A stretch of DNA of 64,000 nt from Deltaproteobacteria bacterium (GCA_034670305.1 JAXMNT010000039.1:13465-77464); one strand, 5' to 3'; counted from the first letter of the stretch, positions 4,607 through 37,544 are shown. Numbers and translations: made by a program. The notes: generated by a model not told the origin, from the sequence alone.

Positions 4607-5893
4607 ATGACCTGGTTCTTCACCGACCTCGACCCACGCGCGAAGATCGCGGGGTCACGCGACCCGTTGGGTTTTCAGCAGCCGTGGACGGCGCTCGGGA
4701 GGGAGTTCGTCGCAACACTGACCACGGTCACCGTTTCGGTGCGCGGCTTCACGACCCTGATGCTTGGGCTCCACTTGGCAGACGAGCTGATTCGGGACGG
4801 CGAACCCGAAGAACATCGGGCTCGGTTCTTCCTCGAATTCGAACAAGTCGCTGGATACGCGCGTCACCTGAGCCACGGAGTGTCGTCGCTCGGCACCCAA
4901 CGGATCCGCAAGCGCCTCTCGCAGTCGAGTACCGTTCCGCTCGGCTTGGGGTCCGATGCCGCGATCCTCTCGGATCAACGCACCTACGGGCTCTGGGGCC
5001 TGTACTCCAGCTCAGCTCGGGCGAGTGGTCTCGTGGACCGGAACGAGCAGCGTCCAACCAAACGTGCGCGTGACCACCTTCGCGAGGTTGTTCTGCCGCG
5101 CGCACATGCGGTCCATCCCAAGTTGTGGTCGGACCTTCTTCGGCTCATTCGACCGGAGAAGGGCGACCTCTACACGAAGGGGCGCCACCGCGACGTCGTC
5201 TCCTCGCTCGGAGAGGCGTTGTCACCCGAACTCCTGGAGACCGAGCGTGAGTTCTACCTCCAGACGCTCGTGGAAAACGACCTGGGCGACGACCCGACAC
5301 ACGGGCGTCAGCGCTTGCTCTGGCACCTCATGGAGGACCTGAGCAAGGAGTTCCCTTGGGACAAGGGACCCACCCGTTCCGAAGTCGAGGAACTCGCCAA
5401 ACGAGCTGCGGAGACGGACGAGGGGCTCGCGGACTCGCTCCAGGCGGTCCTCGTGCTCGACCCCTTCTTCGCCCTGGTCTCCAGGCTCTTCTCCTTGGCG
5501 CTCCAAGCGAGCGGCACACGCGCCGAAGTCATTGCGACCATTCGGGGTCAGCGGGCCGCCTTCGGCGCGATCGATCCGGCCGCCCTCGAGAGCCGACGGT
5601 CGCGTTTGGGAGGAGACCAGGCGGACCGGCTCGTCGCTCTCGGGCACGCGCTTCGGGATGGGGACTTCGAACGCTCGCTCGATCTGATCCTGGAACAGAA
5701 CAGCAGCGTGATGCGTGCTCGCGGCGGATCCGCGTGGGCCGAGTCGCGCGGTGATCGCATCGAGGTGCGACTGCGGTCCGAACCGTTGATCGCGCCGGCA
5801 GAAGCAGATGTGAACGCGGACCTCTTCTACCCCTACTTCCTGTCGTCGCTGAAGACAGTGGGTGGTGCGGTTCGCACGGGCAAAGAGACATGA
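4607..5893 (+). CDS. Uncharacterised defence-associated protein (DUF6361-like, ZacA-like by context)
   Basis: N-terminal GSRDPLGF...LTTVT motif and YGLWGLYSSS; ATGA overlap with the PLD gene; ATG at 4607 follows a purine-rich stretch. Confidence 0.55.
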   Translation: MTWFFTDLDPRAKIAGSRDPLGFQQPWTALGREFVATLTTVTVSVRGFTTLMLGLHLADELIRDGEPEEHRARFFLEFEQVAGYARHLSHGVSSLGTQRIRKRLSQSSTVPLGLGSDAAILSDQRTYGLWGLYSSSARASGLVDRNEQRPTKRARDHLREVVLPRAHAVHPKLWSDLLRLIRPEKGDLYTKGRHRDVVSSLGEALSPELLETEREFYLQTLVENDLGDDPTHGRQRLLWHLMEDLSKEFPWDKGPTRSEVEELAKRAAETDEGLADSLQAVLVLDPFFALVSRLFSLALQASGTRAEVIATIRGQRAAFGAIDPAALESRRSRLGGDQADRLVALGHALRDGDFERSLDLILEQNSSVMRARGGSAWAESRGDRIEVRLRSEPLIAPAEADVNADLFYPYFLSSLKTVGGAVRTGKET

Positions 5894-11858: not shown

Positions 11859-11872
11859 ACATCTCGGTCGGC

Positions 11873-12328
11873 GTGGGGGAGAAGCCCGAGCAGGTCGCCA
11901 TCCTCTGGGATGGCCGGCGCGCCGTTTCGCTCGACCAAGGCTCCCGTACGTTGACCGAGCTGAGTCTCGAGCCGTTCGAGCGTGTCCAAGGCATTGCGCT
12001 CGACCACGCACCGGGCGAGGTCGTCGTCTCTCCGAACGGATTCGCCGCGGTCGTGCTCACTGGCCGATTTCGCGGTACTGGGAACGGTGTCGTCGTGGTT
12101 GCGGGAGATCCGCTCCGAGTCGTCGCGCAAGGACCAACGGGACGCGCCCCCTACTCGATCGCCATCAACGGCACCGGGAGCATGCTTGCGACGGCCGACA
12201 GCGGCGGCGGGACCGCGACGTTCTTCGAGGTCATCGCCCGTCCCCGTGAGCAAACCGAAGGACCGGACGAGACCGGTTTCGATGACTCGATCGATAAGCC
12301 GGAGGACGACGAAGAAGACGGGGAGTAG
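11873..12328 (+). pseudogene. Probable 5'-truncated beta-propeller (YncE/YVTN-like) remnant
   Basis: Only about three blade-like units (APGEVVVSPNG, GRAPYSIAINGTG..LATADSGGGT); weak GTG start 14 bp after the helicase stop; acidic tail. Confidence 0.45.
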
Positions 12329-12378
12329 TCCCGTCCCACATCGCGGAAGTGATCATTGGCTCTCTGCGAGGTGCCCAT

Positions 12379-12417
12379 CCACTTGCCGCCAAACCTGCGG
12401 AACCAACCAAGCCCGCC
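12379..12417 (+). repeat. Right copy of 39-bp degenerate direct repeat
   Basis: ccacttgccgccaaacctgcggaaccaaccaagcccgcc, intergenic; shares an 18-bp exact core with 4430-4447. Confidence 0.85.
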
Positions 12418-12585
12418 GACCGCGGCCGACCATGACCCGCCATTCCCCGATCTTACGGAACAGACCAAGATGCCGAGCGCAGCGCCTTGTCCCCTTGTTG
12501 TGTCGGAAAGCGATCGCATCAACGGAGCCGACTGTGGCCAAACGTCTACCCAGACAGAGCCGAGTTAAAACACCGAACAGGCCTG

Positions 12586-12627
12586 ACGTGATTCACGTTG
12601 AACCCGTCTTCGTTCCGCAGGTAGTCT
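12586..12627 (+). promoter_or_regulatory. Candidate sigma70 promoter for drmD with overlapping palindrome
   Basis: TTGAAC (12598-12603), 18-bp spacer, TAGTCT (12622-12627); inverted repeat ACGTGA-T-TCACGT at 12586-12598. Confidence 0.35.
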
Positions 12628-12636
12628 CTCCGGTCC

Positions 12637-15600
12637 GTGTCCGATCGACCTTCGACCCGTTCCCTGCTGCGCGTCCTCTCGAGGGCGCGGTTGCAGGACG
12701 TTGCCCGCTCCCGCGGCATCGGAGCGCCGAGCGCGAAGCCCAAGCGCAAGGAGATGATCGACCTGCTGCTCCAGGACTCGGCTCTGAACTTCCGCGCGGT
12801 GCTCTCGTTGCTCGGGCGGGACGAGCTGAAGGCAGCCTGCCGCGCCCACGTCGTGGACCACTCCGGCCGCAGCCGCGCCGACCTTCAGGCGCGGCTGATC
12901 GCGGCCCGTGGGGACGCGGTGGAGTCCGCGCCGCCGCCGCCTGCTTTCGTCCCCACCGGCCCAGTGCGCCACGAACCCCGCACGGGAGACATCGTGCTCT
13001 GCCGGCACCGGCAATGGCTCGTCGAGGATGTGGTTGCGATCGAAGGCCAGGCGACGCGGGTCGCGCTGGTCTGCCTCGACGACGACAACCAAGGGGCGAA
13101 CCTCGAGACGCTCTGGGAGCTGGAGCTCGGCGCGAAGATCCTTCCCCACGAGTCGGGCAAGCTCACCGAGCCGAAGCAGCTCGATCAGCCGCGGCACTTC
13201 GGGGCGTACCTCCACGCGCTCAAGTGGAACGCGGTCACCGCGACCGACGCGAAGCTCTTTCAGTCGCCGTTCCGTGCCGGCATCCGGCTGATGCAGCATC
13301 AGCTCACGCCGCTCACCAAGGCGCTCTCGCTGCCGCGCGCGAACCTGTTCATCGCGGACGACGTGGGTCTCGGCAAGACCATCGAAGCCGGGCTCGTGCT
13401 CCAGGAGCTTCTGCTCCGGCAGCGGGTCGAGTTCGTGCTCGTCATCTGTCCGGCTTCCGTGCAGCTCCAATGGAAAGAGGAGATGGGCCAGCGCTTCGGT
13501 CTTCCCTTCGAGATCATGAGCCGGCACTACGTCGCCCGCGTCCGCAAGGAGCGGGGCTTCGGCCAGAACCCTTGGAGCACCCACCGCCGCTTCATCGTCA
13601 GCCACCCGATCGTGCGTCGGCCGGAGTACCGCGAGCAGCTCCTCGCCCACCTTCGGGAACGCGGCGCCGAAGAAGGCACGTCCCGCGCGAAGAAGTCGCT
13701 CCTGATCCTCGACGAAGCGCACGTGGCGGCGCCCGCGAGCGCGAGCAAGTGGGCGACCGACTCGGAGATCACGCGCGTCGTCCGCGACATCGCCCCGCGG
13801 TTCGAGAACCGTCTCTTCCTCAGCGCCACTCCGCACAACGGCCACAGCAACAGCTTCAGCGCCCTGCTCGAGATCCTCGATCCGCAGCGGTTCACCCGCG
13901 GGGTGCCCATCCGCGATCCCGAGCGTCTGCGCCCGGTGATGGTGCGTCGGCTCAAAGAAGACCTCCGCGAACGCGAAGGCATCGACTTCCCCAAGCGGCT
14001 GCTCGTGCAGGTCGACCTGAAAGAGAACGCCGGCTCGTGGGACGTGACCCACGTCACCCACGACCGGAGCGAAAAGAAGATCCAGCGGGGCAAGACGCGG
14101 CAATGCGAGGGCGCGGCCACCGTCGGCGGTGTTGCGGTGGAGCTGGAGCTCAGCGAACTGCTCCGCGCGTACCGCAGCTTGATGCGTCCACTGCTGCTCG
14201 CCGATGGACAACGGAGCGCGCGACTCGTCTTCGTCAACCTGCAGAAGCGCTTGCTCAGCAGCGTTCCGGCCTTTGCGCGGACTCTCCGCGTGCACGCCAA
14301 ACGGCTGCGTACCCAGGGCACGCTTTCTGCCCAAACCAAGATCATCCTCCAGGACGAAGACGCGCTCGGCCTCGACGACGAGACGCTCGACGCGGCCGAG
14401 GACCAAGACGTCGTTCGTGCGACCGAAGCGCTCCGGCGCGGGCTCGAGTCCGCCACCGAGAGCGACGCCCGCACGCGCGCGTCACAGCTGCTCGATCGTA
14501 TGCTCGAGCTCGCGGAGGCCCGCGCCCACCAGCCGGACGGCAAGACGCTCGCGCTGCTCGACTGGATGCAGCAGCACCAGTGCGCGGGCGCGCGCCTGCA
14601 TGGACCGAAGAAGAAGTCGAAGGCCGAACGCGCCTGGACCGGCCGCCGGGTGCTGGTCTTCACCGAGTACGGCGACACCCGCCGCTACCTGAAGCAGATG
14701 CTGCAGGCCGCGTTCGACCAGACGGATCGCGCCGAGGTGCGCATCGCCGAGCTCTACGGCGGCATGCACGAAGACCGGCGCGCCGAGGTCCAGCGCGACT
14801 TCAACGCACCCCCGGACAAAGCCGCGGTCCGCGTGCTCATCGCCACCGACGCCGCCCGCGAAGGCATCAACCTCCAGGGGCACTGCGCGGACCTCTTCCA
14901 CTTCGACGTGCCGTGGAACCCGGGCCGCCTCGAACAACGCAACGGCCGCATCGACCGAACGCTCCAGCCGTCGCCCGAAGTGCGCTGCCACTACTTCCGC
15001 TACACCGACCGCGCCGAAGACGTGGTGCTTCAGCGCTTGGTGGAGAAGGTCGACGTCATTCGCCGCGAGCTCGGCTCGCTCGGCGCGGTTGTCATGGAAC
15101 GCATCGACCGCACCCTGGCCGAGGGCATCGACGAAGACACCGTGGGCGCTCTCGATGCGGCGAGCGAACCCGGCGATCAAAGCGTCGTGCAGGCGGAACT
15201 CGAAGCCCAGCGCAGCACGCAGGACGCGCTCGCCGCGGAGATCGAAGAAGCCGGCGAGATCCTCTCCCGCTCTGCGAAGGTGATGGAGTTCCGGCGCGAG
15301 CACCTGCGCGAAGCGCTGGACGTGGGTCTCGAACTCTCGGGCGTGCCCGCGCTGGTGCCTGTGAAGGACACGAAGGGCCGGTTCGAACTGCCACCGATGC
15401 CCTCCTCCTGGTCACGCACCGTCGACTCGTTGCGGGTGCCGAAGCAGCGCGACGAAGAGTGGTGGGAGTGGCGTCAGCGCCCGCCACGCCCGGTGGTCTT
15501 CCATCCGCCCGCAAAGATGAACGACGACGCGGTCCACCTGCATCTGAGCCACCCCTTCGTGAAGCGTATTCTCGGCCGGCTCCTGGCCCAGGGGTACAGC

Positions 15601-16275
15601 GCCCACGACCTCTCCCGGGTCACGGTCCTCCGGAACGAACGCGACCACCGCGTGCGCGCCATCGTGTTTGGCCGCTTGAGTCTCTTCGGCCACGGCGCCG
15701 CCCGCCTGCACGACCGGCTCCTCAGCGCCGCCGGCGAGTGGAAGGGAGAGGCCGACGAGATCGTTGCCTTCCAAGACGCCGCGGACCGCAACGCCATCGC
15801 CATGCTGGAGGATGTGCTCGCCGACAGCCCGAGCCTCGACCCGATCCCGGAGGTCGTGCAGCGCCGCGTGCTCGATGCCGCACCGGTGCTCTTCGAGCGG
15901 CTGTGGGCGCGGGTGCGTGAGGACGCCGATGCCGAAGCCCACCGTGCCCAGACCGCGCTCACCGCACGTGGTCTCCAAGAGGCAGCCGCCCTTCATGAGA
16001 TTCTCGCAACGCAAGAGAAGGACGTCGCGGAGCGCATGAAGGAACTCGAGCAGCTACCGCTCTCGTTCGCCGACACCAAGACTAGAAAGCGCGAGCAACT
16101 CCAGCTCAAGAAGGACATCGCGCACATGGACCGTCGCGTAGGCGAGATTCAGAAGGAGCAGGCGTCCGAGCCCGACCAGCTGAAGACCCTCTACGACGTC
16201 GTGCTCCGCCGCCTCGAACCTGTCGGCCTCGTGGTGCTCTGGCCCTCCTCCCGACTCTCGAAAGACTCGCGATGA
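12637..16275 (+). CDS. drmD: DISARM SNF2-like helicase DrmD
   Basis: GDIVLCRHRQWLVEDV; LFQSPFRAGI; IADDVGLGKTIEAGL; DEAH; LSATPHNG; ATDAAREGINLQ; LEQRNGRIDR; C-terminal RLEPVGLVVLWP; adjacent to MTase and drmABC. Confidence 0.9.
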   Translation: MSDRPSTRSLLRVLSRARLQDVARSRGIGAPSAKPKRKEMIDLLLQDSALNFRAVLSLLGRDELKAACRAHVVDHSGRSRADLQARLIAARGDAVESAPPPPAFVPTGPVRHEPRTGDIVLCRHRQWLVEDVVAIEGQATRVALVCLDDDNQGANLETLWELELGAKILPHESGKLTEPKQLDQPRHFGAYLHALKWNAVTATDAKLFQSPFRAGIRLMQHQLTPLTKALSLPRANLFIADDVGLGKTIEAGLVLQELLLRQRVEFVLVICPASVQLQWKEEMGQRFGLPFEIMSRHYVARVRKERGFGQNPWSTHRRFIVSHPIVRRPEYREQLLAHLRERGAEEGTSRAKKSLLILDEAHVAAPASASKWATDSEITRVVRDIAPRFENRLFLSATPHNGHSNSFSALLEILDPQRFTRGVPIRDPERLRPVMVRRLKEDLREREGIDFPKRLLVQVDLKENAGSWDVTHVTHDRSEKKIQRGKTRQCEGAATVGGVAVELELSELLRAYRSLMRPLLLADGQRSARLVFVNLQKRLLSSVPAFARTLRVHAKRLRTQGTLSAQTKIILQDEDALGLDDETLDAAEDQDVVRATEALRRGLESATESDARTRASQLLDRMLELAEARAHQPDGKTLALLDWMQQHQCAGARLHGPKKKSKAERAWTGRRVLVFTEYGDTRRYLKQMLQAAFDQTDRAEVRIAELYGGMHEDRRAEVQRDFNAPPDKAAVRVLIATDAAREGINLQGHCADLFHFDVPWNPGRLEQRNGRIDRTLQPSPEVRCHYFRYTDRAEDVVLQRLVEKVDVIRRELGSLGAVVMERIDRTLAEGIDEDTVGALDAASEPGDQSVVQAELEAQRSTQDALAAEIEEAGEILSRSAKVMEFRREHLREALDVGLELSGVPALVPVKDTKGRFELPPMPSSWSRTVDSLRVPKQRDEEWWEWRQRPPRPVVFHPPAKMNDDAVHLHLSHPFVKRILGRLLAQGYSAHDLSRVTVLRNERDHRVRAIVFGRLSLFGHGAARLHDRLLSAAGEWKGEADEIVAFQDAADRNAIAMLEDVLADSPSLDPIPEVVQRRVLDAAPVLFERLWARVREDADAEAHRAQTALTARGLQEAAALHEILATQEKDVAERMKELEQLPLSFADTKTRKREQLQLKKDIAHMDRRVGEIQKEQASEPDQLKTLYDVVLRRLEPVGLVVLWPSSRLSKDSR

Positions 16276-19200
16276 GCTCCGATGCGCAGCGCCGGCATGA
16301 GGCTTGGCTTGGGATGGCGCAGCCCGTGGAGGGGCTCGTCTTCTCTGCGCCCGTCCTCGCCGACCGGAACGTGCCCCGGCCCGAACTCTCGCCGACCGAA
16401 CTCCAGCGCCTCTTCCTCGAAGTCTGCCCACCCAGTGAGATCGAAGAGGGCGTCTCCACCAAACCCGCCATCCGCGACCTCCTCCGCTTCTTCCAGACCC
16501 TCCTCGCCTACGAACCCGCCGACTGGCACGGCCCCGAACTCACCGGCGGCAAAGCACTCGGCCAAGAAGCCAAACAACTCGGCGGCACCTTCCCGCCCGC
16601 GCTCCATCTCGACGTGCCCGAAGCCGACCAGGTCCTCCGGCCCACCCTCGCGCTCCCCAAACGCACCCCCACCCCCATCCCCGACGGCACCGACGCCACC
16701 GACGCCGCGCGCGCCGGCGCGGCGTACGAACTCCTCGTCTGGGACCTCGCCGACCCACAGTGCGCCGGAGACGCCGCCATCGGCCTCGACCTCGACAAAC
16801 CCGAAGACGTCACCGGCCACTGGCGCTACCCGCCCACCGCCAAGTTCGAACGCCTCCTCCGCCACCTCCGCGTCCCCGTCGGACTCCTCACCAACCGCCG
16901 CGAACTCCGCCTCGTCTACGCCCCCCACGGCGAGTCCACCGGACACCTCACCTTCCGGTTCGACGACCTCGCCGAGATCGGCGGCCGCCCCATCCTCGAC
17001 GCCCTCGTCGCGCTCCTTCACGCCGAACGCTTCTTCAGCCTGCCCGCCGACGAAGGCCTCACCGCGCTGCTCCGCGAAAGCCGCGAACGCCAAGCCAACG
17101 TCACCACCGAGCTCGCCGAACAGGTCATGGACGCCCTCCAGATCCTGCTCAGCGGCTTCCAGGCCGCCGCCGAACGCGACCCCGAAGGCTACGGCGCCGT
17201 CTTCGCCGACGCGCTCGAACGCACCGTCGTCAGCCACCACCAAGTCACCGACGCCGCCACCGAAGCCGACCACGTCTACCGCGGCCTGCTCACCGTCATG
17301 CTTCGCCTCGTCTTCCTGCTCTTCGCCGAAGACCGCGGCCTCCTCCCCACCGACCACCCCCTCTACCGCGACCACTTCAGCGTGCTCGCGCTCTTCGCCC
17401 GCCTCCAAGAAGACGCCGGCGCCCACCCAGACTCCATGGGGCTGCGCTTCGGCGCGTGGGGCCAGCTCCTCGCCGTCTTCCGCGCCGTCTTCACCGGCGT
17501 CGAACACGGCGACCTCCGCATGCCCGCGCGCCACGGCGACCTCTTCGACCCCCACCGCTTCCCCTTCCTCGAAGGTGTCGTCGTCGGTGCCTCCCCGCTC
17601 CGCCGCCCCGAACAACAAGCCGCCATCAACGTCCCCACCATGGACGACGGCACCGTCTTCCGGGTCCTCGAGAAACTCATCGTCTTCGAAGGCCAGCGCC
17701 TCAGCTACAAGGCCCTCGACGTCGAGCAGATCGGCAGCGTCTACGAAGCGCTCATGGGCTTCCACGTGCACCGGTGCGAAGCCCCCGCCGTCCGGGTCCG
17801 CGTCGCCAAAGGCAGCCCGCCCTGGCTCACCGTCGACGAAGTCCTCGAGCAGAAACCCGCCCAGCGTGAGAAGTGGCTCAAGAAAGAGATTGGCCTCACC
17901 GGCGCCAACGCTAAGAAGCTCGCCGCACGCTTCAAAGCCATCGACAAGCTCTCGGACGAACAAACGCTCACCGAGTTCGAAGCGCTCGGCCACGCGGCAC
18001 CGGTTTCGACCGACGACGCCGCCACTGGCTCGGCCACCGCCGACGCACGCCGCCACGCGTTGATGCTCGACGCACTCTCCGACATGGCCGCCGTCCGCAA
18101 GAAGTCGCAGCGCGGCAAGGCGCTCGCCGCTGCCGGCCGGCTCGTGCTCCAGCCGGGCGAAGAACGCCGGCGCACGAGCAGCCACTACACCCCGCGCTCG
18201 CTCAGCGCGCCCATCGTCGAACGCACCCTCGAACCGCTCCTGCGCGCTATGGGCGACGCCCCCACCGCGGACCAGCTCCTCGAGCTGAAGGTCTGCGACC
18301 CCGCCATGGGCAGCGGGGCGTTCCTCGTCGCCGCCTGCGATTACCTCGGCGACCAACTCGTTGCCGCGTGGACCCGCGAAGGCGCGCTCGAACAGGTCGC
18401 CAAAGACGCACCGAACGAAGACCCGGTCCTCTACGCCCGGCGCCTCGTCGCGCAGCGCTGCCTCTACGGCGTGGACAAGAACGACGCCGCCGTCGAGCTG
18501 GCCAAACTCTCGCTCTGGCTCTTCACCCTGGCCCGCGACCGCCCCTTCACCTTCCTCGACCACGCCCTGCGCCACGGCGACTCCCTCGTCGGGCTGAGCT
18601 TCGAACAGATCCGCAACTTCACCTGGGAGCCGGAGTCTGAACTGAAGGGCCTCGACAAGAAGGGCGCCCAGCTGGACCTGAGCCACAGGGAACTCGACGT
18701 GGCCCTCGGCGAAGCCATCCCGATCCGCCAGCGCATCCTGGAGCTCGCGAAAGACCCGAGCCCGGACGCGCAGTCAGAGAAGGAGCAGCTCGTCTTCCAA
18801 GCCGCCGACGCGCTCGACCGGGTGCGGCTCATCGGCGACGTGATCGTCGGCGCGTTCTTCGCGGAGAAAAAGAAGAAGGCCCGCGAGAAAGAGAAGGAGC
18901 GCCGCCGCACGCTCGTCCAGCGCTGGCTGGCCGGCGACGAAGAGGCGGGCGGGGAGCTGCGACAGCTCCAAGCCGAGATCCGCGCCCGGCTACCAGTGTT
19001 CCACTGGATGCTCGAGTACCCGGAAGTCTTCTGGAGCGAACGAGCCGACCCGCTGGCGATGTGGGCGACCGATGGCGAGGCGTACATGGATGCGTTCGTG
19101 GGGAACCCTCCGTTCATGGGCGGATCGGGCATCTCCACCGCAATGGGTGACGAGTTCCGAGATTGGTTGCTCGCGACCCACATCAACTCTCACGGCAATG

Positions 19201-20552
19201 CCGACCTCTGCGCCCACTTCTTCCGCACTGCGCATCTCCTCCTCGGAGCGCACGGCACGTTGGGCTTCATCGCAACCAACACGATTGCTCAAGGCGACAC
19301 CCGCTCGACCGGCTTGCAGTGGCTTTGTCGGCGAAGCGGCGTCATCTACGCGGCCACCCCTACGAGGACGTGGCCCGGGGACGCCGCGGTGATGGTGGCC
19401 GAGGTGCATCTCTCATTCGGGCGCACACGCCCTGGCCAGCGCACGTTGGCTGGTCAGTCCGTAGGAGAGATCAACTCCCGACTTCGAGGCGGTGCCGAGC
19501 GGGATGATGCGAGTCATCTCGATGCTTGCTCGGGCGTCAGCTTCCTCGGGTCGAAAGTCTACGGACAGGGGTTCGTTCTCACCCCCGAAGACCGCGATGC
19601 GCTCGTCGCCAAGAACCCACGGAACGCCGAACGCATCTTCCCCTACCTGGGCGGAAAAGAGGTCAACACCAGCCCCACTCAGTCACACGACCGATTCGTG
19701 ATCAGCTTCGGACAAATGTCACTTGAGCAGGCGGAGGCGTGGCCGGACCTCATCGAGATCGTTCGCACAAAGGTGAAGCCCGATCGAGATCGTCTGAAGG
19801 ACAATCCAGATGGTCGTCGTCGAAAGCAGTACTGGTGGCAGTTCGGGCGCTGGACCCCTGCGCTCTTCGAAGCAATCGCCTCAGGCAGCCGTTGCCTCGT
19901 CAACTCCCAGGTCAGCAAGCACCTGGTGTTCGCGTTCCAACCCACCGACCGCATCTTCGGCCACGCTCTCTACGCTTACCCCCTCCCCGCCTACGCCTCC
20001 TTTGCGACCCTCCAGTCGCGCATCCACGAGGGCTGGGCGCGCTTGCTCTCGTCCTCGCTTGAAGACCGACTCCGCTACGCGGCGAGCGACTGCTTCGAGA
20101 CCTTCCCGTTCCCGGAGCCGGACCCCCGCACCGTACTCCCCGCGCTCGAGACGATCGGCGAGCGGCTCTACGAAGCGCGGGCGAAGTACATGGTGGACAC
20201 CCAGCAGGGCCTGACCACCGCCTACAACCTGCTCAAGGACCCTGCCGAACTGGAGCCCCGCCTCCTCGAGCTCCGCGCCCTCCACGTCGCCCTCGATGAA
20301 GCGGTCCTGCAGGCCTACGCCACCAGCACCGCCCCCATCGAAGACGCAGAACTGGTCAACGGCCAAGACCCCCGCTGGACGGCCATAGAGGTCCCCCCCT
20401 TCTGCCCCGAAACCCCCGGCCCCGAACCCGAAGCCAACTGGAAGCGCCAACTAGCCCGCTTCCAAGACCAAACCATAGACCTCCTCTTCCAACTAAACGC
20501 CTCCCGAGCGAAGGCGGAGAAGACAACCGCAGGCAGGAACTCGGAGAAGTAA
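16272..20552 (+). CDS. drmMI: DISARM class 1 adenine DNA methyltransferase (Eco57I/type IIG-like) DrmMI
   Basis: LDVEQIGSVYEALM; SSHYTPRSL; VCDPAMGSGAFL (SAM binding); VGNPPF (motif IV); ATNTIAQGDTR; DCFETFPFP; ATGA overlap with drmD. Confidence 0.88.
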   Translation: MSSDAQRRHEAWLGMAQPVEGLVFSAPVLADRNVPRPELSPTELQRLFLEVCPPSEIEEGVSTKPAIRDLLRFFQTLLAYEPADWHGPELTGGKALGQEAKQLGGTFPPALHLDVPEADQVLRPTLALPKRTPTPIPDGTDATDAARAGAAYELLVWDLADPQCAGDAAIGLDLDKPEDVTGHWRYPPTAKFERLLRHLRVPVGLLTNRRELRLVYAPHGESTGHLTFRFDDLAEIGGRPILDALVALLHAERFFSLPADEGLTALLRESRERQANVTTELAEQVMDALQILLSGFQAAAERDPEGYGAVFADALERTVVSHHQVTDAATEADHVYRGLLTVMLRLVFLLFAEDRGLLPTDHPLYRDHFSVLALFARLQEDAGAHPDSMGLRFGAWGQLLAVFRAVFTGVEHGDLRMPARHGDLFDPHRFPFLEGVVVGASPLRRPEQQAAINVPTMDDGTVFRVLEKLIVFEGQRLSYKALDVEQIGSVYEALMGFHVHRCEAPAVRVRVAKGSPPWLTVDEVLEQKPAQREKWLKKEIGLTGANAKKLAARFKAIDKLSDEQTLTEFEALGHAAPVSTDDAATGSATADARRHALMLDALSDMAAVRKKSQRGKALAAAGRLVLQPGEERRRTSSHYTPRSLSAPIVERTLEPLLRAMGDAPTADQLLELKVCDPAMGSGAFLVAACDYLGDQLVAAWTREGALEQVAKDAPNEDPVLYARRLVAQRCLYGVDKNDAAVELAKLSLWLFTLARDRPFTFLDHALRHGDSLVGLSFEQIRNFTWEPESELKGLDKKGAQLDLSHRELDVALGEAIPIRQRILELAKDPSPDAQSEKEQLVFQAADALDRVRLIGDVIVGAFFAEKKKKAREKEKERRRTLVQRWLAGDEEAGGELRQLQAEIRARLPVFHWMLEYPEVFWSERADPLAMWATDGEAYMDAFVGNPPFMGGSGISTAMGDEFRDWLLATHINSHGNADLCAHFFRTAHLLLGAHGTLGFIATNTIAQGDTRSTGLQWLCRRSGVIYAATPTRTWPGDAAVMVAEVHLSFGRTRPGQRTLAGQSVGEINSRLRGGAERDDASHLDACSGVSFLGSKVYGQGFVLTPEDRDALVAKNPRNAERIFPYLGGKEVNTSPTQSHDRFVISFGQMSLEQAEAWPDLIEIVRTKVKPDRDRLKDNPDGRRRKQYWWQFGRWTPALFEAIASGSRCLVNSQVSKHLVFAFQPTDRIFGHALYAYPLPAYASFATLQSRIHEGWARLLSSSLEDRLRYAASDCFETFPFPEPDPRTVLPALETIGERLYEARAKYMVDTQQGLTTAYNLLKDPAELEPRLLELRALHVALDEAVLQAYATSTAPIEDAELVNGQDPRWTAIEVPPFCPETPGPEPEANWKRQLARFQDQTIDLLFQLNASRAKAEKTTAGRNSEK

Positions 20553-23500
20553 TGGCGCATGTACTCATCGACCTGGAGAACCGGCCCGCAGAAGAGGAGG
20601 AGCTGGACGACCTTCTGCAGCGGCTGGAAGGAATGCGAACCGCAGCGCTCGACGAGGCTAGCGCCCGTAGGAAAGGGGATCGCCTTCCGAACTCGATAGA
20701 CCGTTTTCGCACAGCCAAGGCGCTTCTCATCGATGGCCCCCGAGGAAGCGGCAAGACCACGCTGCTGCTCGATGCCCTGACTTGCTGTGGCACATTCTAC
20801 CCCAAGGGAAGTGACCAACCGAGGCATTCAGAACTCACCCCCGTCTGCCTCATTGACATGGAGCGGCTTGCAACCGACGTACCTCTTGCCATTCAGACCT
20901 TGGCGGCTCTCCGGAGGGCCGCCACACCACCCGATGCCGACCGTTGGACCGAAGACGACAGAGCACTCGACGAAGACTGGAAGCGCGTCTTGGAGGCTGT
21001 TGGTCGCGGATGGCGCAACAACCTCGCATCCAGGCGGTCGGAGATGGATCCGAGTGAGTACGTCTGGGTGCTCGAGAACGCCGCCGAAAGCGCGCTCGAG
21101 CATGCGCACAGTCACCGGTCCTTCGTGGACAGACTCGTACTCACTTGGCAGCGCGCCGCGCCCGGACGAGAGGACACCCAGCCGCTGTTCATCGTCGCTG
21201 TAGACGATGCGGACATGCAGCCCGACCGCTGCGCCGAGCTCCTTCACATGACAAGAGTTCTGTGGCACCCGAACGTTGCGTTCCTGTTGGCGGGGGACGA
21301 GAACCTCTTCATGGCGAGTCTCATTGGCCACTTCACCGCTGCCCTCGCAGTTCCGCCGATGACCTCACCCCCGCGTGCGATCCGCGGGCACATCGACCCA
21401 CGAGTCCTCGCCCGAGACCTTTTCGCAAAAGTCTTCCCGCCCAGTCATATCGTTGAACGCCAGCCGGTTCCTGAGCGCGAGCGAACTGAGAGACTGCTCA
21501 CCCTCCTGGAGGAGCAGGAGACATCGGTCGCTGAACGCCTGAAGTTCTTCATCAAGTCTCATTCGGCGACAGTACAGGCTGCGCTCCCACGCTATCACCG
21601 TCACCTCAATCAGCTGGCCGAAGCGCTAGGAAAAATTGGCCGCCGCAGGGAGGGGCTCGGGATAGAGGACTTCGTTGAGGAGCTGTTCCGGAACGCCCAC
21701 TCTCGGTACGCCATCCCGGAGGATGCGGAAACTGCGGCATCCGTGGGGCCCGGGTTGGCCGTCCACAGTAGCGGAGAGCGGGTACGCTTCATGCCACAAG
21801 TGTTCGAACCTGGCTTTCGGATACCCGCAGTACATAGCGGCTTTATTAGACTTCGAGATGGCGAACGGTGGCCAGAGCTCGTGGAACGCGACGAGGACGC
21901 GCAGATGGCCGCCGCCGCATTTCAATTGTCGATACTTGTCTTCATGCCCCTTGTCGGCGAGCACCAGCTCGACGGGGGCGGCGGCCTCGTGTCGTTGCGT
22001 GTTCCAGGTCACTTATGCCCGACATCTGACGACCTATGGCTCCCAATTACTTTTCGTGAAATCTGGACTAAAACTCTCATCCGCATTCAAATGGTTCTTC
22101 GCTCTGCTGCCGACCCACTTCCGCGCATGCAGGGCATATTGATGTGCATGCTGAACGATGATTCAGCAGAAATGATCGACGAGCTCACGACGAACACCAA
22201 GGAAATCGGAAGGCCGTTGAGCTTTCTGTGGCGAGAACTCATCGCCAGAGAAGGGGTCCAACCCCGGCAACATGATGCCGACGCACTACTAGTGGGACTA
22301 ATGGCAACACTGCCAGAGTCTGGCTTGGAAGCAGAAGCTGCCAACGCACTTTTTGATGACATTCGCGTCCTCTGCGGTACCCGGTTCGAACGGGTTCTTC
22401 GTGCCGGAGTCGCTCTCCGGCGGAGGCGACTCTCGAAGATTGATCTCGGATCGTACTCGGCGGTCGGGTGGCTTGAGCACATCGATGGACCCGACGATGG
22501 AGAAGTCGATGATGTATTGAACTCAGTCGCATGGTTTCGAATTCCGGTCGGTGGTGTGCGTGGCGAGGAGGTGCGACGTTTCCTTGAGGCAATGCCGGAA
22601 GACTATAAGGGCCTGGAGATTATGCCCGGCTGGGCGAATGGGAAGCAGCGACCCCTGCAGCTCTATTTCACTGAGTCGCGGGTGCTTGAAATTCTCGACG
22701 CTCGTCGGACTGGCGGTCAGGCTCGAACCCACTCCCTGGTGCTCGAACGGGAGATTCCCCGGCTAAGGCGGGGTCGCGGTGCCGCATACGTGCAGCTGCA
22801 CCAGCTGTGGGAGGCTGTGGGTGCCCCCTTCCTCGGAGGGCCAGGTTCATGGCTTGCCCGACTCCGGGGGGGGCGGCTTGAGACATCCAATGGGAACGAG
22901 TTCCCGGAACCCGTGGTGTCTAGCATTGGTCGCCCCCTGCTCCCGCACGCACAGATTGCACCCCTCGACATTGCGGGTCAGGTGTTTGGCCTCGACACTG
23001 TGCAAAGCGTGCTGCTTCGGATCATTCGAGACGTGCACGTTGACAGCACAGACCAGACAAAGTCTCCACCCCCGGCCCTCGGCGATCTGGGGGTACACGT
23101 CTCAGGCGGAGTGACTGTGACCTGGCCCGCGCCAGCCTACATGGCCCCCATCGACCGTGAGACCCTCGTATTGGTATGGAACCAACTGGTCTCCAGCTGG
23201 CTGGATGAGCGACCGAACGTGGACCCTGAGCAGATACTGGATCTCATGGCAGTGGATGCGCTCCAATCTATCCAGCGTATTGGGCAGTCACGCTCATCCC
23301 ATCGTCCGGACCACGACTTCCGGACACCTGAAGAGCAGGTGGAGGAGCTGCGGTTCGGGTACACTGGAATGCTGAACGCGGGCGGGGCAAGAGCGTCTCT
23401 TCACAAGCACTTTATTGTGGTTGGCGTGCCTCTACTATGCTGTCCCGAATATGGTCTTTCCACTGAAATATCGAACGCGATCTTCGGAAAGTGCGATCCA

Positions 23501-23650
23501 CCTGAACCTGGCGTGTTGGAAGCGATTCGGGCGGAGCGCATTCGACGGGTTCATGCCGAGGAAGCGGACCAGGTTCCTCGACTGTTGGCCGAGATCGACT
23601 CGGCCCACGGCGACCGGGAAATTGTCCGGGCGCTTGCTGAGCAGGCGTAG
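20552..23650 (+). CDS. Large P-loop NTPase, RADAR RdrA-like
   Basis: Walker A GPRGSGKTT and Walker B IVAVDDAD; 1032 aa; directly upstream of an adenosine-deaminase-fold gene; visibly more A/T-rich codon use than flanks. Confidence 0.7.
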   Translation: MAHVLIDLENRPAEEEELDDLLQRLEGMRTAALDEASARRKGDRLPNSIDRFRTAKALLIDGPRGSGKTTLLLDALTCCGTFYPKGSDQPRHSELTPVCLIDMERLATDVPLAIQTLAALRRAATPPDADRWTEDDRALDEDWKRVLEAVGRGWRNNLASRRSEMDPSEYVWVLENAAESALEHAHSHRSFVDRLVLTWQRAAPGREDTQPLFIVAVDDADMQPDRCAELLHMTRVLWHPNVAFLLAGDENLFMASLIGHFTAALAVPPMTSPPRAIRGHIDPRVLARDLFAKVFPPSHIVERQPVPERERTERLLTLLEEQETSVAERLKFFIKSHSATVQAALPRYHRHLNQLAEALGKIGRRREGLGIEDFVEELFRNAHSRYAIPEDAETAASVGPGLAVHSSGERVRFMPQVFEPGFRIPAVHSGFIRLRDGERWPELVERDEDAQMAAAAFQLSILVFMPLVGEHQLDGGGGLVSLRVPGHLCPTSDDLWLPITFREIWTKTLIRIQMVLRSAADPLPRMQGILMCMLNDDSAEMIDELTTNTKEIGRPLSFLWRELIAREGVQPRQHDADALLVGLMATLPESGLEAEAANALFDDIRVLCGTRFERVLRAGVALRRRRLSKIDLGSYSAVGWLEHIDGPDDGEVDDVLNSVAWFRIPVGGVRGEEVRRFLEAMPEDYKGLEIMPGWANGKQRPLQLYFTESRVLEILDARRTGGQARTHSLVLEREIPRLRRGRGAAYVQLHQLWEAVGAPFLGGPGSWLARLRGGRLETSNGNEFPEPVVSSIGRPLLPHAQIAPLDIAGQVFGLDTVQSVLLRIIRDVHVDSTDQTKSPPPALGDLGVHVSGGVTVTWPAPAYMAPIDRETLVLVWNQLVSSWLDERPNVDPEQILDLMAVDALQSIQRIGQSRSSHRPDHDFRTPEEQVEELRFGYTGMLNAGGARASLHKHFIVVGVPLLCCPEYGLSTEISNAIFGKCDPPEPGVLEAIRAERIRRVHAEEADQVPRLLAEIDSAHGDREIVRALAEQA

Positions 23651-25833
23651 TGGAACGGAGGCCTCACGAAGCACTACATGCGTACGCGGTGGCCGCCCCC
23701 CTGTGTGAACCATTGGCCTTCCGTCTATGCCTACGACAGTTGGGGGACTGGCAGCGGGGTGTTGCCAGGGACGCAATCCCGGTCGCAAAGGCAACGAGGC
23801 GGCGTCTGCGCGAACATGGGCGGGGTCGTTCACTGCGAGAGCTTGAGTCGATTCGCGACGGTGCCTGGTTCGCAGCCAAGAAGGGAAGAGCGACACCTCG
23901 CACGGTGCTCAAGCGCTATGCGGACTCATTGCTCTCAGCGAACGGGGAACTGCAGACCGGGGGCGCTCCGTGGTGGCGCACGATACGAAACTACCGTTGG
24001 GCGACACTCGCGTTGCCATGGGAAGTGCTGTTGCTTGCGGTCGCACAGACGACGCCGACCGAGTTACGCCGCCCTGACCTCCTGTCTGCGATCGGCCCGC
24101 TCTCGCGCCGGTGGAGCGAGAACCACCTCCATCAGGGCGGAGCTGCGGAGTACAGCGAACTGTGGACCGGCCTCATGCTGGATGCGTATCAGGGCACGTT
24201 GAGTCTCGCGAGCATGCCGGAGGACAAGGCTATTCCGATGGGCTCACCCACCGGGGTCGAGCGACTCCTCTATCAAGCTGCCGCCGTTCGCATGCGTTTG
24301 GTTGGCTTCAATCACAAGCCGGCAAGCGTGGGTGAGAGACGGGCCTGGAACGCTCTCGACGCGACCTGGCTTGGAGCGACCAGACAGCCACTCGGAGACT
24401 ATCGACTGCTGTCTCGTGGAGTCAGGGTGCACAGACGTGGTGGCTGCCCGACTGACCCCGCCTCCGTAGCCCTCGGCCAGCCAAGTCCATCCGCCGAGTG
24501 CGAGGTGCTCCACAAGGCACTGCACTCCTCATGCGTGTACTCGTTGCAGTACCTGCGGGTGTACTGCTGGCTCTACCGATACGTTGTGCAGCAGCCGGGT
24601 GTCCAAGGCCTGGGTTGGTTCGATCGTCACTACCGCAGGCTGGACACACTCACCAAGGGCATCGAAGACCATCGCCAACGACGAGCACTTCGCCTCACCG
24701 AGTCACATCTGCGGGCGCAACATGTGGAAACGCGTTCGACCCCACGTCGTGCCTTGAGGAAGATCCTTGAGACACACCGACTCGCCCACGAGGTAGGTAC
24801 ACGCGTGAGGTTCGCCGTGCATTTTCTCCGCGCCGACTCACGCAAGACTCCATGGCATCGCGATTGGCTGGAGGAGAACCGAGGGTCCGCGACGACCGTC
24901 GCCCGCCTGATACGTCGACCCGGACCCTCGTTCTCTGCAGTCGATTGTGCCAACGATGAACTCAGCGTACCGACCGGTATCGAGAATGCGGTCCTCCACT
25001 GCGCACTAGCTAGCGCATCCAGGTCAAGGCATCCGCCCGCACTGTCACTCCATGCCGGCGAGGACTATCGCTCACCCTTGGAGGGTCTGAGACGCGTCGA
25101 TCGTGTCTTGATGCTGGCATCACACTACGGACTCAGGGCCCGCATTGGGCACGGCCTTGCACTTCTCGAGTCACGTGAACGCAGCCGTGAAGGAAGGCTC
25201 CTGCAGCCCCGCTTCGAGCGGCTGTGTGACTTGCGGTGGGAAGAACACCTGGCGTGGGACATGCGGATCCGACGGGGGGACGGCCGCAAGCGTGCGGTCG
25301 AACATGAGATGCGTCTGCTTCTGGACGAGATGGAACTCGGTTCGACGCCGCTCCCTCAAGCCCGTGTTCTACTTGATCGGTTCACGAGCCCGGACGAGAC
25401 CTTCGCCCTGCATGGGCGGAAGCCATACCGCTACGAGGATCCGCTGAGTCAGTTCTTGGGCAACCGTCGAAAGACTCTCCTTGGTCAACAACCCGTCGAG
25501 GTTGTCTGGAACTCAAGCGAGAGAGAGGTCTCGCAAGCCGCACGGGACGCGGTCCGTCGAAAGGCGATCGACATGGGTGCCTTCATCGAGTGCTGTCCGT
25601 CCAGCAATCTCCTGGTCGGAGACTACAATGCGCTCGAAGACCACCCGATGTATCTGGAAGAGAACGAGCAGCTGAAGCTCACTATCAACTCGGATGACCC
25701 GCTGACATTCGCAACCTGCCTCGCGGACGAAATCGCCTATGCACTCGCGGGTGCCATTGCGAGCGGAATGACGCTGCCCGAGGCGCTCACGTGGATCGAC
25801 CGCCTCCGGCGAAATGGAAACGCAGTTCCGTAG
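23650..25833 (+). CDS. Adenosine/AMP deaminase-fold protein, RADAR RdrB-like
   Basis: Metal and catalytic motifs ENHLHQGG, HAGED, RIGHG, ECCPSSN, INSDDP in the expected order; 727 aa with long N-terminal extension; 1-nt overlap with the NTPase stop. Confidence 0.78.
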   Translation: MERRPHEALHAYAVAAPLCEPLAFRLCLRQLGDWQRGVARDAIPVAKATRRRLREHGRGRSLRELESIRDGAWFAAKKGRATPRTVLKRYADSLLSANGELQTGGAPWWRTIRNYRWATLALPWEVLLLAVAQTTPTELRRPDLLSAIGPLSRRWSENHLHQGGAAEYSELWTGLMLDAYQGTLSLASMPEDKAIPMGSPTGVERLLYQAAAVRMRLVGFNHKPASVGERRAWNALDATWLGATRQPLGDYRLLSRGVRVHRRGGCPTDPASVALGQPSPSAECEVLHKALHSSCVYSLQYLRVYCWLYRYVVQQPGVQGLGWFDRHYRRLDTLTKGIEDHRQRRALRLTESHLRAQHVETRSTPRRALRKILETHRLAHEVGTRVRFAVHFLRADSRKTPWHRDWLEENRGSATTVARLIRRPGPSFSAVDCANDELSVPTGIENAVLHCALASASRSRHPPALSLHAGEDYRSPLEGLRRVDRVLMLASHYGLRARIGHGLALLESRERSREGRLLQPRFERLCDLRWEEHLAWDMRIRRGDGRKRAVEHEMRLLLDEMELGSTPLPQARVLLDRFTSPDETFALHGRKPYRYEDPLSQFLGNRRKTLLGQQPVEVVWNSSEREVSQAARDAVRRKAIDMGAFIECCPSSNLLVGDYNALEDHPMYLEENEQLKLTINSDDPLTFATCLADEIAYALAGAIASGMTLPEALTWIDRLRRNGNAVP

Positions 25834-25860
25834 CGGCACCGCTGTCGACGTACACGTGCA

Positions 25861-26122
25861 CTCTCCTGCAGGCCATCGCGTGACCCGTCAACGCCCGTTC
25901 AATTTCGGGAGAGGAACGCAGGAGTTCGAACGAGTGTGGGGGAGTTCCGTCGCAGGACAACGAACTGCAGACGGCCGTCCACTGTCGTCCCCTACCAAGA
26001 CACCGCTCAGAAGCACGAAGCGCTCGCAGCATCCCTGACTTCTCTCCCCCAATCCCCCAACTCTTGCGTTCCTCCCCTCAAAAGAACCAAGAGCCAACGC
26101 GAACCACCACCAAGCAGGAGAG
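25861..26122 (+). other. Nested inverted-repeat element (structured ncRNA or REPIN/MITE relic)
   Basis: Stems 25861-25869/26114-26122 (9 bp), 25911-25926/26059-26074 (16 bp, one G-U), 25937-25944/26044-26051 (8 bp), inner hairpin 25947-25974. Confidence 0.6.
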
Positions 26123-26186
26123 CCCCGCCCGCGAGAACAACAACACCCGTTCTCTCAAAACGTCAGGTGGGCAACGAGCGGGTCTG

Positions 26187-27818
26187 TCAGGGACAGCTGG
26201 TTCGTTCTGCCATCGAGACCTCCCGGCCGCCGAACGACAGCGTGTCCGCCGCAATGATCGGCCGGACCGTGAACTCCGCTTCGGTGCTCGTCCGTTCAAT
26301 CGACCCCGTACGCACTGGCAGCTCGTCGGTGCCAGCGCTGCAGCTGTCCAGGCCTGGGTGGGACAGGGCAGAGAAGCGCAGCGCGCGGTCGCCCTCCAGG
26401 ACCGTGCTCAGCACGTAGGTGCGGTCCGCGGTCGGGACGAAGGTGTTCGAGTCCACGTCGCCTGGCGCGAAGAGTCTCGTCGACGTCAGGGCGTCGGCGC
26501 TCGAGAAACGAATCGCCACCGGCCGAGAAGGCATCCGCACAATCTCGCGCTCCGCCAGTACCACCAGCTCGTCGCCGATCTCCATCGCGCGCACCGCCCG
26601 CAGATCGACGCCCGTGTCGGTCGGCTCGATCGCCACGCCCACCCGCACCGCGCCATCGGGCGCGAGTCTCAAGTAGCCCGACCGTGTCACCGGCCCATTC
26701 AACACCGCGACCACATCTTCCCCGGCCTCCAGCAGCCAGGTCACTTGCGCGTCCACGGGGGCGTAGATGCGTCCCCATTCGAAGCCGCCCTCGATTGAGA
26801 ACCGAGCGACCATCGGCGAGTGGTCCGATATCGGACCGGAGTGGCCGCCCACCAACACCCCGCCGCTCGAATCGAGCATCACCGTGTAAGCGGCTTCCTG
26901 CGCGTCGGTGCCGAACTCCCGGAGCCACTGGATGACCCCGTCTCCTGACATGCGTGCGACGGACGCGTTCAGGACCCGCGTGTCCGGGTCCATCCTCGAC
27001 CCGGCCAGCAGCATGCCGCCCGCACCGTCTGAAGCACAGGCGATGAAGCCCGCGCCCTCCGTCGTGAACTGCTTCGTCCACAGCAGGGCTCCATCCGAGT
27101 CGAGCCGAGCCGCCAGCGGACTCCCGGCCACCGACCCGACCACGAGGATGTCGTCGTCCGAACGCACCGCGCACCGAAGCAGCGCCCCGCGGGGCTCCGG
27201 GTTTCCGACCGTCGTCGCCCATCGCTCAGACCCCGCGAAGTCGAACCCCGCCACGAACGCTTCGCTTCCGTCCAGGCTGCGACTGCGCCCAAGCGCGACG
27301 AACCCATCGTCGACCGACACACCCGCGAGGACCTGCTCGGACGCAATCCCGTACTCGGTGATCCACGGCTCCACCTGACAGTCGCCGCCCATGCAGGTGC
27401 TGCCCGCAGCGCAGTCCACCAACGTCTCAGTGGCCCCGTCGGCGTCACACTCGGCGACGGTTTCCGGGTCGACACAAGTGCGTGCGTCCGGGACGCAGAC
27501 GTCTTCCATGCAGCTGTTCGAAGCGCAGTGCTCCGCCGGCGCACAGTCGGCGTGGGCCACGCATTCCACGCACTCACCCGTTGAGGAACACGTCTCACCC
27601 AAGCAGTGGTCGTCGGAGAGACACTCGACGCAGACTCGAGCGTCGGAATCGCAGTACGAGTCACCGCTGCAGCCGCCGCACACATCGGCGGCGTCCATGC
27701 CCCCATCCAGACCAACCCCCACATCGACGCCCGAGTCCGAGGGCCCCGCGTCCATGTGGTCGTCGTCCCCGCAGGCCACGAGGCAGAGCAAGAACAAAGG
27801 CAAAAGACTTCGTGACAT
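26187..27818 (-). CDS. Lipoprotein with Cys-rich repeats and C-terminal beta-propeller
   Basis: Lipobox CLVACGDDD; CVECLSDDHC repeats; repeated (L/F)DxxG.xxW blade motifs. Confidence 0.75.
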   Translation of the reverse strand: MSRSLLPLFLLCLVACGDDDHMDAGPSDSGVDVGVGLDGGMDAADVCGGCSGDSYCDSDARVCVECLSDDHCLGETCSSTGECVECVAHADCAPAEHCASNSCMEDVCVPDARTCVDPETVAECDADGATETLVDCAAGSTCMGGDCQVEPWITEYGIASEQVLAGVSVDDGFVALGRSRSLDGSEAFVAGFDFAGSERWATTVGNPEPRGALLRCAVRSDDDILVVGSVAGSPLAARLDSDGALLWTKQFTTEGAGFIACASDGAGGMLLAGSRMDPDTRVLNASVARMSGDGVIQWLREFGTDAQEAAYTVMLDSSGGVLVGGHSGPISDHSPMVARFSIEGGFEWGRIYAPVDAQVTWLLEAGEDVVAVLNGPVTRSGYLRLAPDGAVRVGVAIEPTDTGVDLRAVRAMEIGDELVVLAEREIVRMPSRPVAIRFSSADALTSTRLFAPGDVDSNTFVPTADRTYVLSTVLEGDRALRFSALSHPGLDSCSAGTDELPVRTGSIERTSTEAEFTVRPIIAADTLSFGGREVSMAERTSCP

Positions 27819-27952
27819 GAGACCAGCCTATGCCGAGCCAATCTCCGGATGCAATCGGCGTTCTGTTCTCGAGAAACGCTCGGCCACAAAATTCGTCATC
27901 ACGGGGTTGTTGTCGGATGCGGTAGCCTCCCTCGCACCGTGGGGATGCCGTC

Positions 27953-37539: not shown

Positions 37540-37544
37540 GGGGG

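Follow-up and report, generated by a model that had tools for sequence, protein, structure and literature searches.

We analyzed a 64,000-nucleotide stretch of DNA from a Deltaproteobacteria bacterium (GCA_034670305.1 JAXMNT010000039.1:13465-77464), hereafter the window, which has a G+C content of 67% and carries a class 1 DISARM defence locus with a pair of genes, probably distantly related to the RADAR system, between its two parts. Four long plus-strand open reading frames (ORFs), encoding DrmD, DrmMI, a 1032-aa NTPase and a 727-aa deaminase, occupy positions 12637-25833 with no spacer between any two of them. A probable lipoprotein gene and a UvrD/GajB-like helicase gene then precede drmA, drmB and drmC. 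The genes of the DISARM system and the pair are listed below, with GC3 denoting the G+C content of third codon positions.

12637-16275, plus strand: drmD, SNF2-type helicase of 1212 aa (PADLOC DrmD, 4.8e-301; Pfam SNF2-rel_dom and Helicase_C; relatives align over residues 5-1206)
16272-20552, plus strand: drmMI, N6-adenine methyltransferase of 1426 aa (PADLOC DrmMI, E = 0, 1209 bits; Pfam MmeI_Mtase, Eco57I and MmeI_TRD)
20552-23650, plus strand: rdrA-like AAA+ NTPase gene, 1032 aa (GC3 0.65; RdrA is the best profile and fold match)
23650-25833, plus strand: rdrB-like gene for an adenosine-deaminase-fold protein of 727 aa (GC3 0.69; RdrB is the best profile and fold match)
30076-33747, plus strand: drmA, 1223 aa from the ATG at 30076 (PADLOC DrmA, 3e-273; relatives align from about residues 75-100 to 1222)
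33744-35630, plus strand: drmB, 628 aa (PADLOC DrmB, 7.3e-69; Pfam MZB/DUF1998; the start overlaps the drmA stop as ATGA)
35632-36396, plus strand: drmC, phospholipase D (PLD)-family nuclease, 254 aa from the TTG at 35632 (PADLOC DrmC, 5.9e-56, the alignment beginning at residue 91 of the long ORF; Pfam PLDc_2)

All five Drm proteins were matched in PADLOC, which bears out the DISARM identity given to the locus by an earlier reading of the same sequence (the original prediction) and places it in class 1. The five genes are intact and in canonical order, drmD and drmMI preceding the core genes drmA, drmB and drmC. The same gene set defines class 1 DISARM, of which the system of Serratia sp. SCBI is an example (10.1101/2021.12.28.474362). 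The product of drmMI aligns end to end with that of a DISARM relative (L052), and the TTG of drmC lies two bases past the drmB stop.

The four-gene run is joined by three stop/start overlaps, all of them found as the original prediction had described. ATGA at 16272-16275 combines the drmD stop with the drmMI start; the drmMI stop TAA (20550-20552) gives its last A to the NTPase start ATG (20552-20554), forming TAATG; and the NTPase stop TAG (23648-23650) gives its G to the deaminase start GTG (23650-23652), forming TAGTG. The placement of drmABC about 4 kb downstream was likewise correct, the drmA start at 30076 lying 4.2 kb past the deaminase stop at 25833. The NTPase start at 20552 is the earliest possible start codon of its frame, and homologues align from residues 2-4; for the deaminase, the nearest homologue (P0002, 38% identity) aligns from residue 3. 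Because homologue alignments reach them, both start codons are more than mechanical limits of the ORFs. One public gene call starts the deaminase 85 residues later. Alignments to DrmMI homologues span residues 1-1426, which shows that drmMI was not shortened by the insertion.

The NTPase contains a Walker A motif GPRGSGKT (K68), a Walker B motif VDDAD (D218/D219) and a sensor-1-like AGD (D249), and these three regions align to the motif regions of Escherichia coli RdrA, where the corresponding residues are K82, D221/D222 and D253 (PMC9994260). Taken alone, the protein matched the PADLOC RdrA model marginally (4.5e-3) and the NCBIfam RdrA model NF041743 at 1.4e-5, with 23.8 bits against a cut-off of 600; it also gave weak Pfam matches to nSTAND and AAA_16. 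A search of 1.84 billion representative proteins returned 647 relatives at E <= 0.001. With a profile of 40 of these relatives (alignment A1), the best PDB sequence match was E. coli RdrA (7.8e-6), and 29 of the 40 family members matched PADLOC RdrA, the best at 2.6e-11. Foldseek, given the AlphaFold model of the NTPase (predicted local distance difference test score, pLDDT, 74.1), returned 20 matches at E <= 0.001; every one of the 14 listed was an RdrA chain, with a best value of 1.8e-8, and the next protein after RdrA was BrxC at 1.7e-3. The RdrA-like NTPases of loci L011-L045 fall into two length classes, one of about 770-790 aa (L016, L029, L033, L036 and L039) and one of about 1080-1260 aa. 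The consensus of the long form has an internally repeated C-terminal block, in which AAPExGL...LxxxRxxR...IDxxxxxHxW occurs twice.

The deaminase, taken alone, matched PADLOC RdrB at 1.4e-8 over about 70 residues, which is again marginal, and the NCBIfam RdrB model NF041744 at 8.6e-16, with 57.6 bits against a cut-off of 800. A profile of 26 relatives (alignment A2) matched RdrB at 6e-47 over about 400 residues, compared with 2e-8 for ordinary adenosine deaminases. The AlphaFold model (pLDDT 83.8, predicted template modelling score 0.87) matched RdrB over its full length at 1.7e-16, with template modelling (TM) scores of 0.66-0.68 as opposed to 0.30 for ordinary adenosine deaminases. The zinc-binding and catalytic residues H159, H161, H468, E471, H501 and D682 are invariant in all 26 sequences, and thus the protein combines the His/Glu catalytic set with a full-length RdrB fold that extends beyond the adenosine deaminase core.

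In a protein homologue search, the deaminase retrieved only its own entry and a single relative with 38% identity, P0002, which is probably encoded on one contig with the NTPase relative P0006 (the longest contig measures 6465 bp for both). Among the genomes of 60 relatives, only one (G033) carried a true deaminase relative, a 914-aa RdrB-like protein encoded on the minus strand (locus L010, G033:C558, 10177-12921; PADLOC RdrB, 1.2e-17). The ORF before this gene overlaps it by 4 nt, is 619 aa or longer and has no detectable similarity to the NTPase family; it may encode an alternative partner of an RdrB-like effector. The neighbouring genes, among them one for a DUF7379-CHAT protein next to the deaminase gene, encode CHAT and VWA proteins and are not DISARM genes.

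RADAR, composed of the AAA+ ATPase RdrA and the deaminase RdrB, is represented by the systems of E. coli, C. rodentium and S. suis (PDB 8FNT, 8FNV, 8FNW and 8HR7). The window pair shares with it the arrangement of two tightly coupled genes, ATPase then deaminase, as well as the catalytic His/Glu/Asp set, the full-length RdrB fold and the RdrA Walker A, Walker B and sensor-1 motifs. It differs in sequence, with 11-16% identity in structural alignments (14-16% between the deaminase and E. coli RdrB), in the size of the NTPase (1032 aa, with relatives of 1100-1260 aa that have a repeated C-terminal region), and in distribution, its clade occurring almost exclusively in Myxococcota (34 of the 35 genome loci). 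In the clade records carrying a name, "hypothetical protein" was used in four of five, the fifth giving gene coordinates only. The original prediction had called the pair RADAR-like, and RdrA and RdrB are indeed its best profile and fold matches. In the PADLOC check it proposed, matches to the Drm genes were strong and those to RdrA and RdrB marginal. Because the NCBIfam scores lie far below the cut-offs of NF041743 and NF041744, the pair is best described, from its profiles and predicted structures, as a remote but genuine relative of RADAR and not as an equivalog-level member.

Given this distance, we considered whether the pair might act other than by poisoning the nucleotide pool, with an RdrB-fold deaminase working on a different substrate, such as RNA, adenosine or a signalling nucleotide, under the control of a STAND-like NTPase. 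The low identity to E. coli RdrB, the NTPase being longer than RdrA, the internal repeat in its relatives and the weak nSTAND and AAA_16 matches are in line with this idea, and further deaminase defences exist, such as Cad1. However, the full-length RdrB fold was recovered at more than twice the TM score of ordinary adenosine deaminases, the catalytic residues do not vary, the NTPase has no strong fold match other than RdrA, and gene order and tight coupling both correspond to rdrA-rdrB. We therefore regard a different substrate as unlikely.

To place the pair in a wider context, we examined its relatives in other genomes. A scan of genome contigs with the NTPase as a single protein found no relative; a profile scan of one genome per species then gave 35 NTPase loci (34 in Myxococcota and 1 in Thermoanaerobaculia), and a metagenome scan with the A1 profile gave 42 more, of which at least one duplicates a genome locus and many are on short contigs. 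In 30 of the 35 genome loci and 27 of the 42 metagenome loci, the gene immediately after the NTPase encodes a deaminase homologue. Contig ends account for four of the five other genome loci, the fifth being the ambiguous L037, and the two genes are no more than 33 nt apart in all 29 loci where the spacing was measurable. Pairing is thus conserved across related loci, and in the window the two genes overlap in TAGTG. At one locus (L028:8710-14343) the deaminase homologue is in two pieces 3.7 kb apart (8722-9951 and 13654-14271) and may have been interrupted by an insertion.

We then searched 10 kb on either side of these loci by tblastn with the ten proteins of the window, counting a DISARM or UvrD-like match at E < 1e-5. 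No match to DrmD, DrmMI, DrmA, DrmB, DrmC or the UvrD-like helicase was found at any of the 35 genome or 42 metagenome loci. The pair lies between drmMI and drmA, on the same strand, in the window, and its homologues at the 77 related loci are non-embedded, which agrees with an embedded defence system in the guilt-by-embedding sense (10.1101/2024.01.29.577857). Neighbours, gaps and the ORFs discussed below were called with a crude GC-frame heuristic that takes the most upstream start, so that gaps are minimum values. Of 34 loci, 16 had a divergent gene upstream of the NTPase; at the other 18 the upstream gene was on the same strand, at a distance of 18-508 nt, with no overlaps.

A phylum sample of 401 genomes was also examined for adjacency. 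An RdrB-like gene was found at E <= 1e-20 in 19 of these genomes and a full-length DrmMI in 40 (43 matches, E = 0), and the two were adjacent only in the genome of the window. They are 87 kb apart in G274 and, G340 aside, on different contigs in the other genomes that carry both, and the readable DISARM loci of G118, G127, G171, G221, G233, G274, G289 and G310 lack the pair between drmMI and drmA. Fragmented assemblies may hide adjacency, as in one further genome (G340). Related genomes are not independent.

The base composition of the pair also sets it apart. The GC3 values of the NTPase (0.65) and the deaminase (0.69) are the two lowest among the 27 genes called in the window (median 0.83), as compared with 0.82-0.87 for the five DISARM genes. 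The two other genes between drmMI and drmA are host-like in this respect (lipoprotein gene 0.83, helicase 0.91). Because GC3 is low in the pair and host-like in these neighbours, the pair is, judged by composition, a recent arrival that came separately from them. Insertion of all four genes as a single block was considered and rejected on the same values. A search around the pair revealed neither flanking direct repeats nor insertion scars; the two-copy matches there were short and at chance level.

We next turned to the interval itself. The slot, defined as the region between the stop of drmMI and the start of drmA, was sized wherever both genes were readable (loci L054-L073, L116-L124, L047, L049 and L053). 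Its length in 19 loci of the phylum sample was about 0, 0, 0, 0.4, 1.4, 1.7, 1.8, 1.9, 2.2, 2.8, 3.3, 3.4, 3.7, 3.8, 3.9, 5.2, 6.0, 6.8 and 12.6 kb, and in three close relatives of the window DISARM it was 2.9, 3.8 and 5.2 kb, compared with 9.5 kb in the window. In two further loci drmA was not within 17-20 kb, and several others end at contig edges. The 47 ORFs of 16 slots have almost no families in common between loci, only L060 and L062 sharing two genes, and none of the 47 resembles the four slot genes of the window. A family scan of the 44 slot ORFs of at least 100 aa identified six PtuA/AAA_21-type ATPases (Septu-like; best 2.3e-89) and one PD-T7-3 (7.2e-104), along with ORFs containing GmrSD, AbiJ, PIN, PD-(D/E)XK and IrrE/M78 or ArdC-like domains and two transposases of two families. 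These results demonstrate that the drmMI-drmA interval of class 1 DISARM in Myxococcota is a variable cargo slot.

In 21 loci we compared the drmMI stop with the earliest start of the next gene: the two overlap in 7 loci, and the gap is 6-33 nt in 6, 43-73 nt in 5 and at least 155 nt in 3. Because genes in this position so often overlap or abut the drmMI stop, the TAATG of the window is one case of a common architecture and does not indicate a special link between RADAR and DrmMI. Two decaying DISARM loci were also encountered. One (L053:10001-21000) has drmMI in several frame-shifted pieces with duplicated N-terminal fragments, and its slot contains genes for a YhgA-like transposase and for a protein with an Xre/MbcA/ParS-type antitoxin domain; the other (L127, in G195) retains short remnants of drmD, drmMI, drmA and drmB only.

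The remaining features of the slot in the window, two genes of which were absent from the original prediction, are the following.

25834-26186, no strand: non-coding spacer of 353 nt after the pair, without an ORF of coding signature
26187-27818, minus strand: probable lipoprotein gene with Cys-rich repeats, 543 aa (N-terminus MSRSLLPLFLLCLVACG, lipobox LVAC; weak Myxo_Cys_RPT and delta-60 repeat matches; GC3 0.83)
27953-30079, plus strand: UvrD/GajB-like superfamily 1 helicase gene, 708 aa (Pfam UvrD-helicase 1.3e-22 and UvrD_C 7.4e-19; PADLOC GajB 2.2e-26; GC3 0.91)

Because the opposite-strand gene at 26187-27818 sits between its two parts, this DISARM consists of two predicted transcription units, drmD-drmMI-NTPase-deaminase and helicase-drmA-drmB-drmC, and the spacer at 25834-26186 marks the end of the first. 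A consensus scan of this spacer found no convincing intrinsic terminator; the spacer contains an imperfect 24-nt inverted repeat (25903-25926 and 26059-26082). Compared with class 1 DISARM as described elsewhere, the two modules are thus 9.5 kb apart, with four genes between them, one on the opposite strand, and a UvrD-like helicase is translationally coupled to drmA, its TGA overlapping the drmA ATG at 30076 as ATGA. The helicase may serve as an accessory of DISARM, or it may be a further embedded defence consisting of a single gene. Its N-terminal region gives a weak ParE_toxin match (PF05016, 6.7e-4). A UvrD-like gene whose product is 30% identical to the window helicase follows drmB in another DISARM locus (L073:7511-8854). 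The lipoprotein-like product matched no PADLOC or Pfam family and no defence family.

With respect to expression, translational coupling and co-transcription are the simplest reading of the gapless junctions, and the pair is probably co-transcribed with drmD-drmMI. This agrees with the co-expression with the DISARM methyltransferase proposed in the original prediction. As the prediction also stated, the gapless junctions leave no space for a promoter between the genes; this does not extend to a promoter within the drmMI coding sequence. Under this latter alternative, the embedded pair would be expressed alone from the 3' part of drmMI, and the overlaps would merely reflect tight packing. Defence operons commonly have internal promoters. 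At its other loci the pair always has an upstream spacer, frequently with a divergent neighbour, so that it normally brings or uses its own promoter, and the GC3 of the last 230 nt of drmMI falls from 0.90 to 0.76. However, a sigma-70 consensus scan of 11800-30200 found 0 sites against 1.1 expected, a weak argument because myxobacterial promoters differ and the consensus is uninformative for this phylum; terminator-like sites in the consensus scan were at background (11 against 11.0 expected). In addition, the alignment of DrmMI with its relatives extends through the final residue, which means that the pair brought in no foreign upstream DNA, and the overlap of ATG and TAA is a classic signature of coupling. 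Expression from an internal promoter is, on balance, a rather unlikely explanation.

We consider it probable that this is a class 1 DISARM whose variable drmMI-drmA interval has captured a horizontally acquired, autonomous two-gene module of RADAR type, which probably rides on the drmD-drmMI transcript and provides an independent second layer of defence. In this locus the pair would have no promoter region of its own and would be expressed by read-through from the drmD-drmMI promoter, with its translation coupled to that of drmMI, as the stop/start overlaps suggest. RADAR of E. coli is formed by an RdrA heptamer docking on an RdrB dodecamer, and infection leads to conversion of ATP and dATP into ITP (inosine triphosphate) and dITP (PMC9994260). 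By homology to that system, the RdrA-like NTPase would sense infection and activate the RdrB-like deaminase, which would convert ATP/dATP to ITP/dITP and abort the infection. The pair would thus be expressed with DISARM yet act independently of it, by a different mechanism, and drmABC, led by the UvrD-like helicase, would form a separate downstream transcription unit past the opposite-strand gene.

Several observations weigh against capture of an independent module. The assignment to RADAR is one of remote homology, far below curated cut-offs, with substrate and assembly predicted only, and the global TM score between the NTPase and RdrA is low (0.25-0.32), as expected of a multi-domain model. 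Co-transcription is deduced from gene spacing only. Among the 35 genome loci of the pair, the stop/start overlap of the NTPase with its upstream gene is unique to the window, and something did shape this drmMI-NTPase junction. Both systems lie at contig ends in G340, where adjacency is not judgeable. Finally, full-length DrmMI is present in 9 of the 19 genomes carrying an RdrB-like gene and in 31 of the 382 others, which is above chance and could hint at a functional link.

The unique overlap and the raised co-occurrence also favor the proposal made in the original prediction, namely a dedicated DISARM and RADAR unit in which the pair guards DrmMI as PrrC does. In such a model, the NTPase would monitor DrmMI or DrmD and fire the deaminase when a phage inhibits DISARM, in the same way that PrrC serves the type I enzyme EcoprrI. 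The PrrC anticodon nuclease is held latent by its host enzyme and is a precedent for an embedded guard. PrrC resembles the present case in being an abortive-infection effector beside a methyltransferase gene, inside a locus of the restriction-modification (RM) type. The position of the pair directly after drmMI, the raised co-occurrence and this precedent speak for a guard. However, PrrC is almost exclusively embedded in type I RM systems, according to the main text of 10.1101/2024.01.29.577857, whereas the window pair is without DISARM in every other locus examined (0 of 77) and occupies none of the 22 other readable DISARM slots, which hold unrelated cargo. The recurrence between drmMI and drmA that the original prediction had looked to is thus absent from these loci, and by its own measure the guard reading is unsupported. 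Moreover, the foreign GC3 marks the pair as recent and not co-evolved with drmMI, unrelated cargo genes often overlap the drmMI stop as well (7 of 21 loci), and lineage and genome size confound the co-occurrence, its carriers being related large-genome lineages that are not independent. We consider a guard function very unlikely. Equally improbable, in our view, is the broader idea that the 3' end of drmMI is a docking site that places interchangeable abortive-infection modules under DISARM transcription and translation, with the RdrA-like NTPase here also acting as guard of DrmMI or DrmD. If it were true, this would be the first RADAR-type system triggered via another immune system and not directly by phage.

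The surroundings of the locus are those of a defence island. Immediately upstream of drmD, an overlapping gene run on the plus strand (4532-12328) has the appearance of a further candidate defence system and contains the following genes.

4532-5893, plus strand: PDC-M27A-like (3.1e-10)
5890-7938, plus strand: ZacB/PDC-M27B-like PLD protein (1.3e-23)
7935-11858, plus strand: PDC-M27C/ZacC-like SNF2 helicase (6.8e-75)
11873-12328, plus strand: 151-aa ORF with no family

Downstream, a PLD-like ORF on the minus strand (36426-37586), convergent with drmC, gives weak DrmC and ZacB matches (1.8e-6), its PLDc_2 match being below threshold.

The capture of an autonomous RADAR-type module fits what is known of defence genes embedded in other defence systems, including Hma, BREX, DISARM as well as type I RM. 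The main text of 10.1101/2024.01.29.577857 reports that DISARM "frequently contained embedded genes", that embedded genes run in the same direction as their host system in 96.7% of cases, and that co-regulation is a possible benefit of embedding. DISARM slots elsewhere likewise hold diverse known and candidate defence genes, whereas the cargo here belongs to a divergent RADAR-like clade that the tested hidden Markov model libraries do not call, and it is joined to its host by a stop/start overlap. The word "RADAR" has 0 occurrences in that main text, the supplements lying outside this count, and our literature search returned no description of RADAR inside DISARM, the papers naming both DISARM genes and RADAR being reviews of a general kind and annotation papers. 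The arrangement is therefore undescribed in a narrow sense, for RADAR in DISARM; same-orientation embedding in DISARM was already reported in the main text of 10.1101/2024.01.29.577857.

On present evidence the arrangement reveals no new mechanism, and the locus is one more case of a defence system carrying other defence genes inside. It is a clean example of a RADAR-type, nucleotide-poisoning module within a DNA-restricting DISARM operon, which would make a ready-made cassette for two-layer immunity. The pair also draws attention to a sizeable, mostly myxobacterial RADAR-like clade that curated models miss, and annotation would benefit from its inclusion in defence-finder libraries. The drmMI-drmA slot of Myxococcota is rich in cargo and may be mined for new defence genes, an approach already proposed in print.

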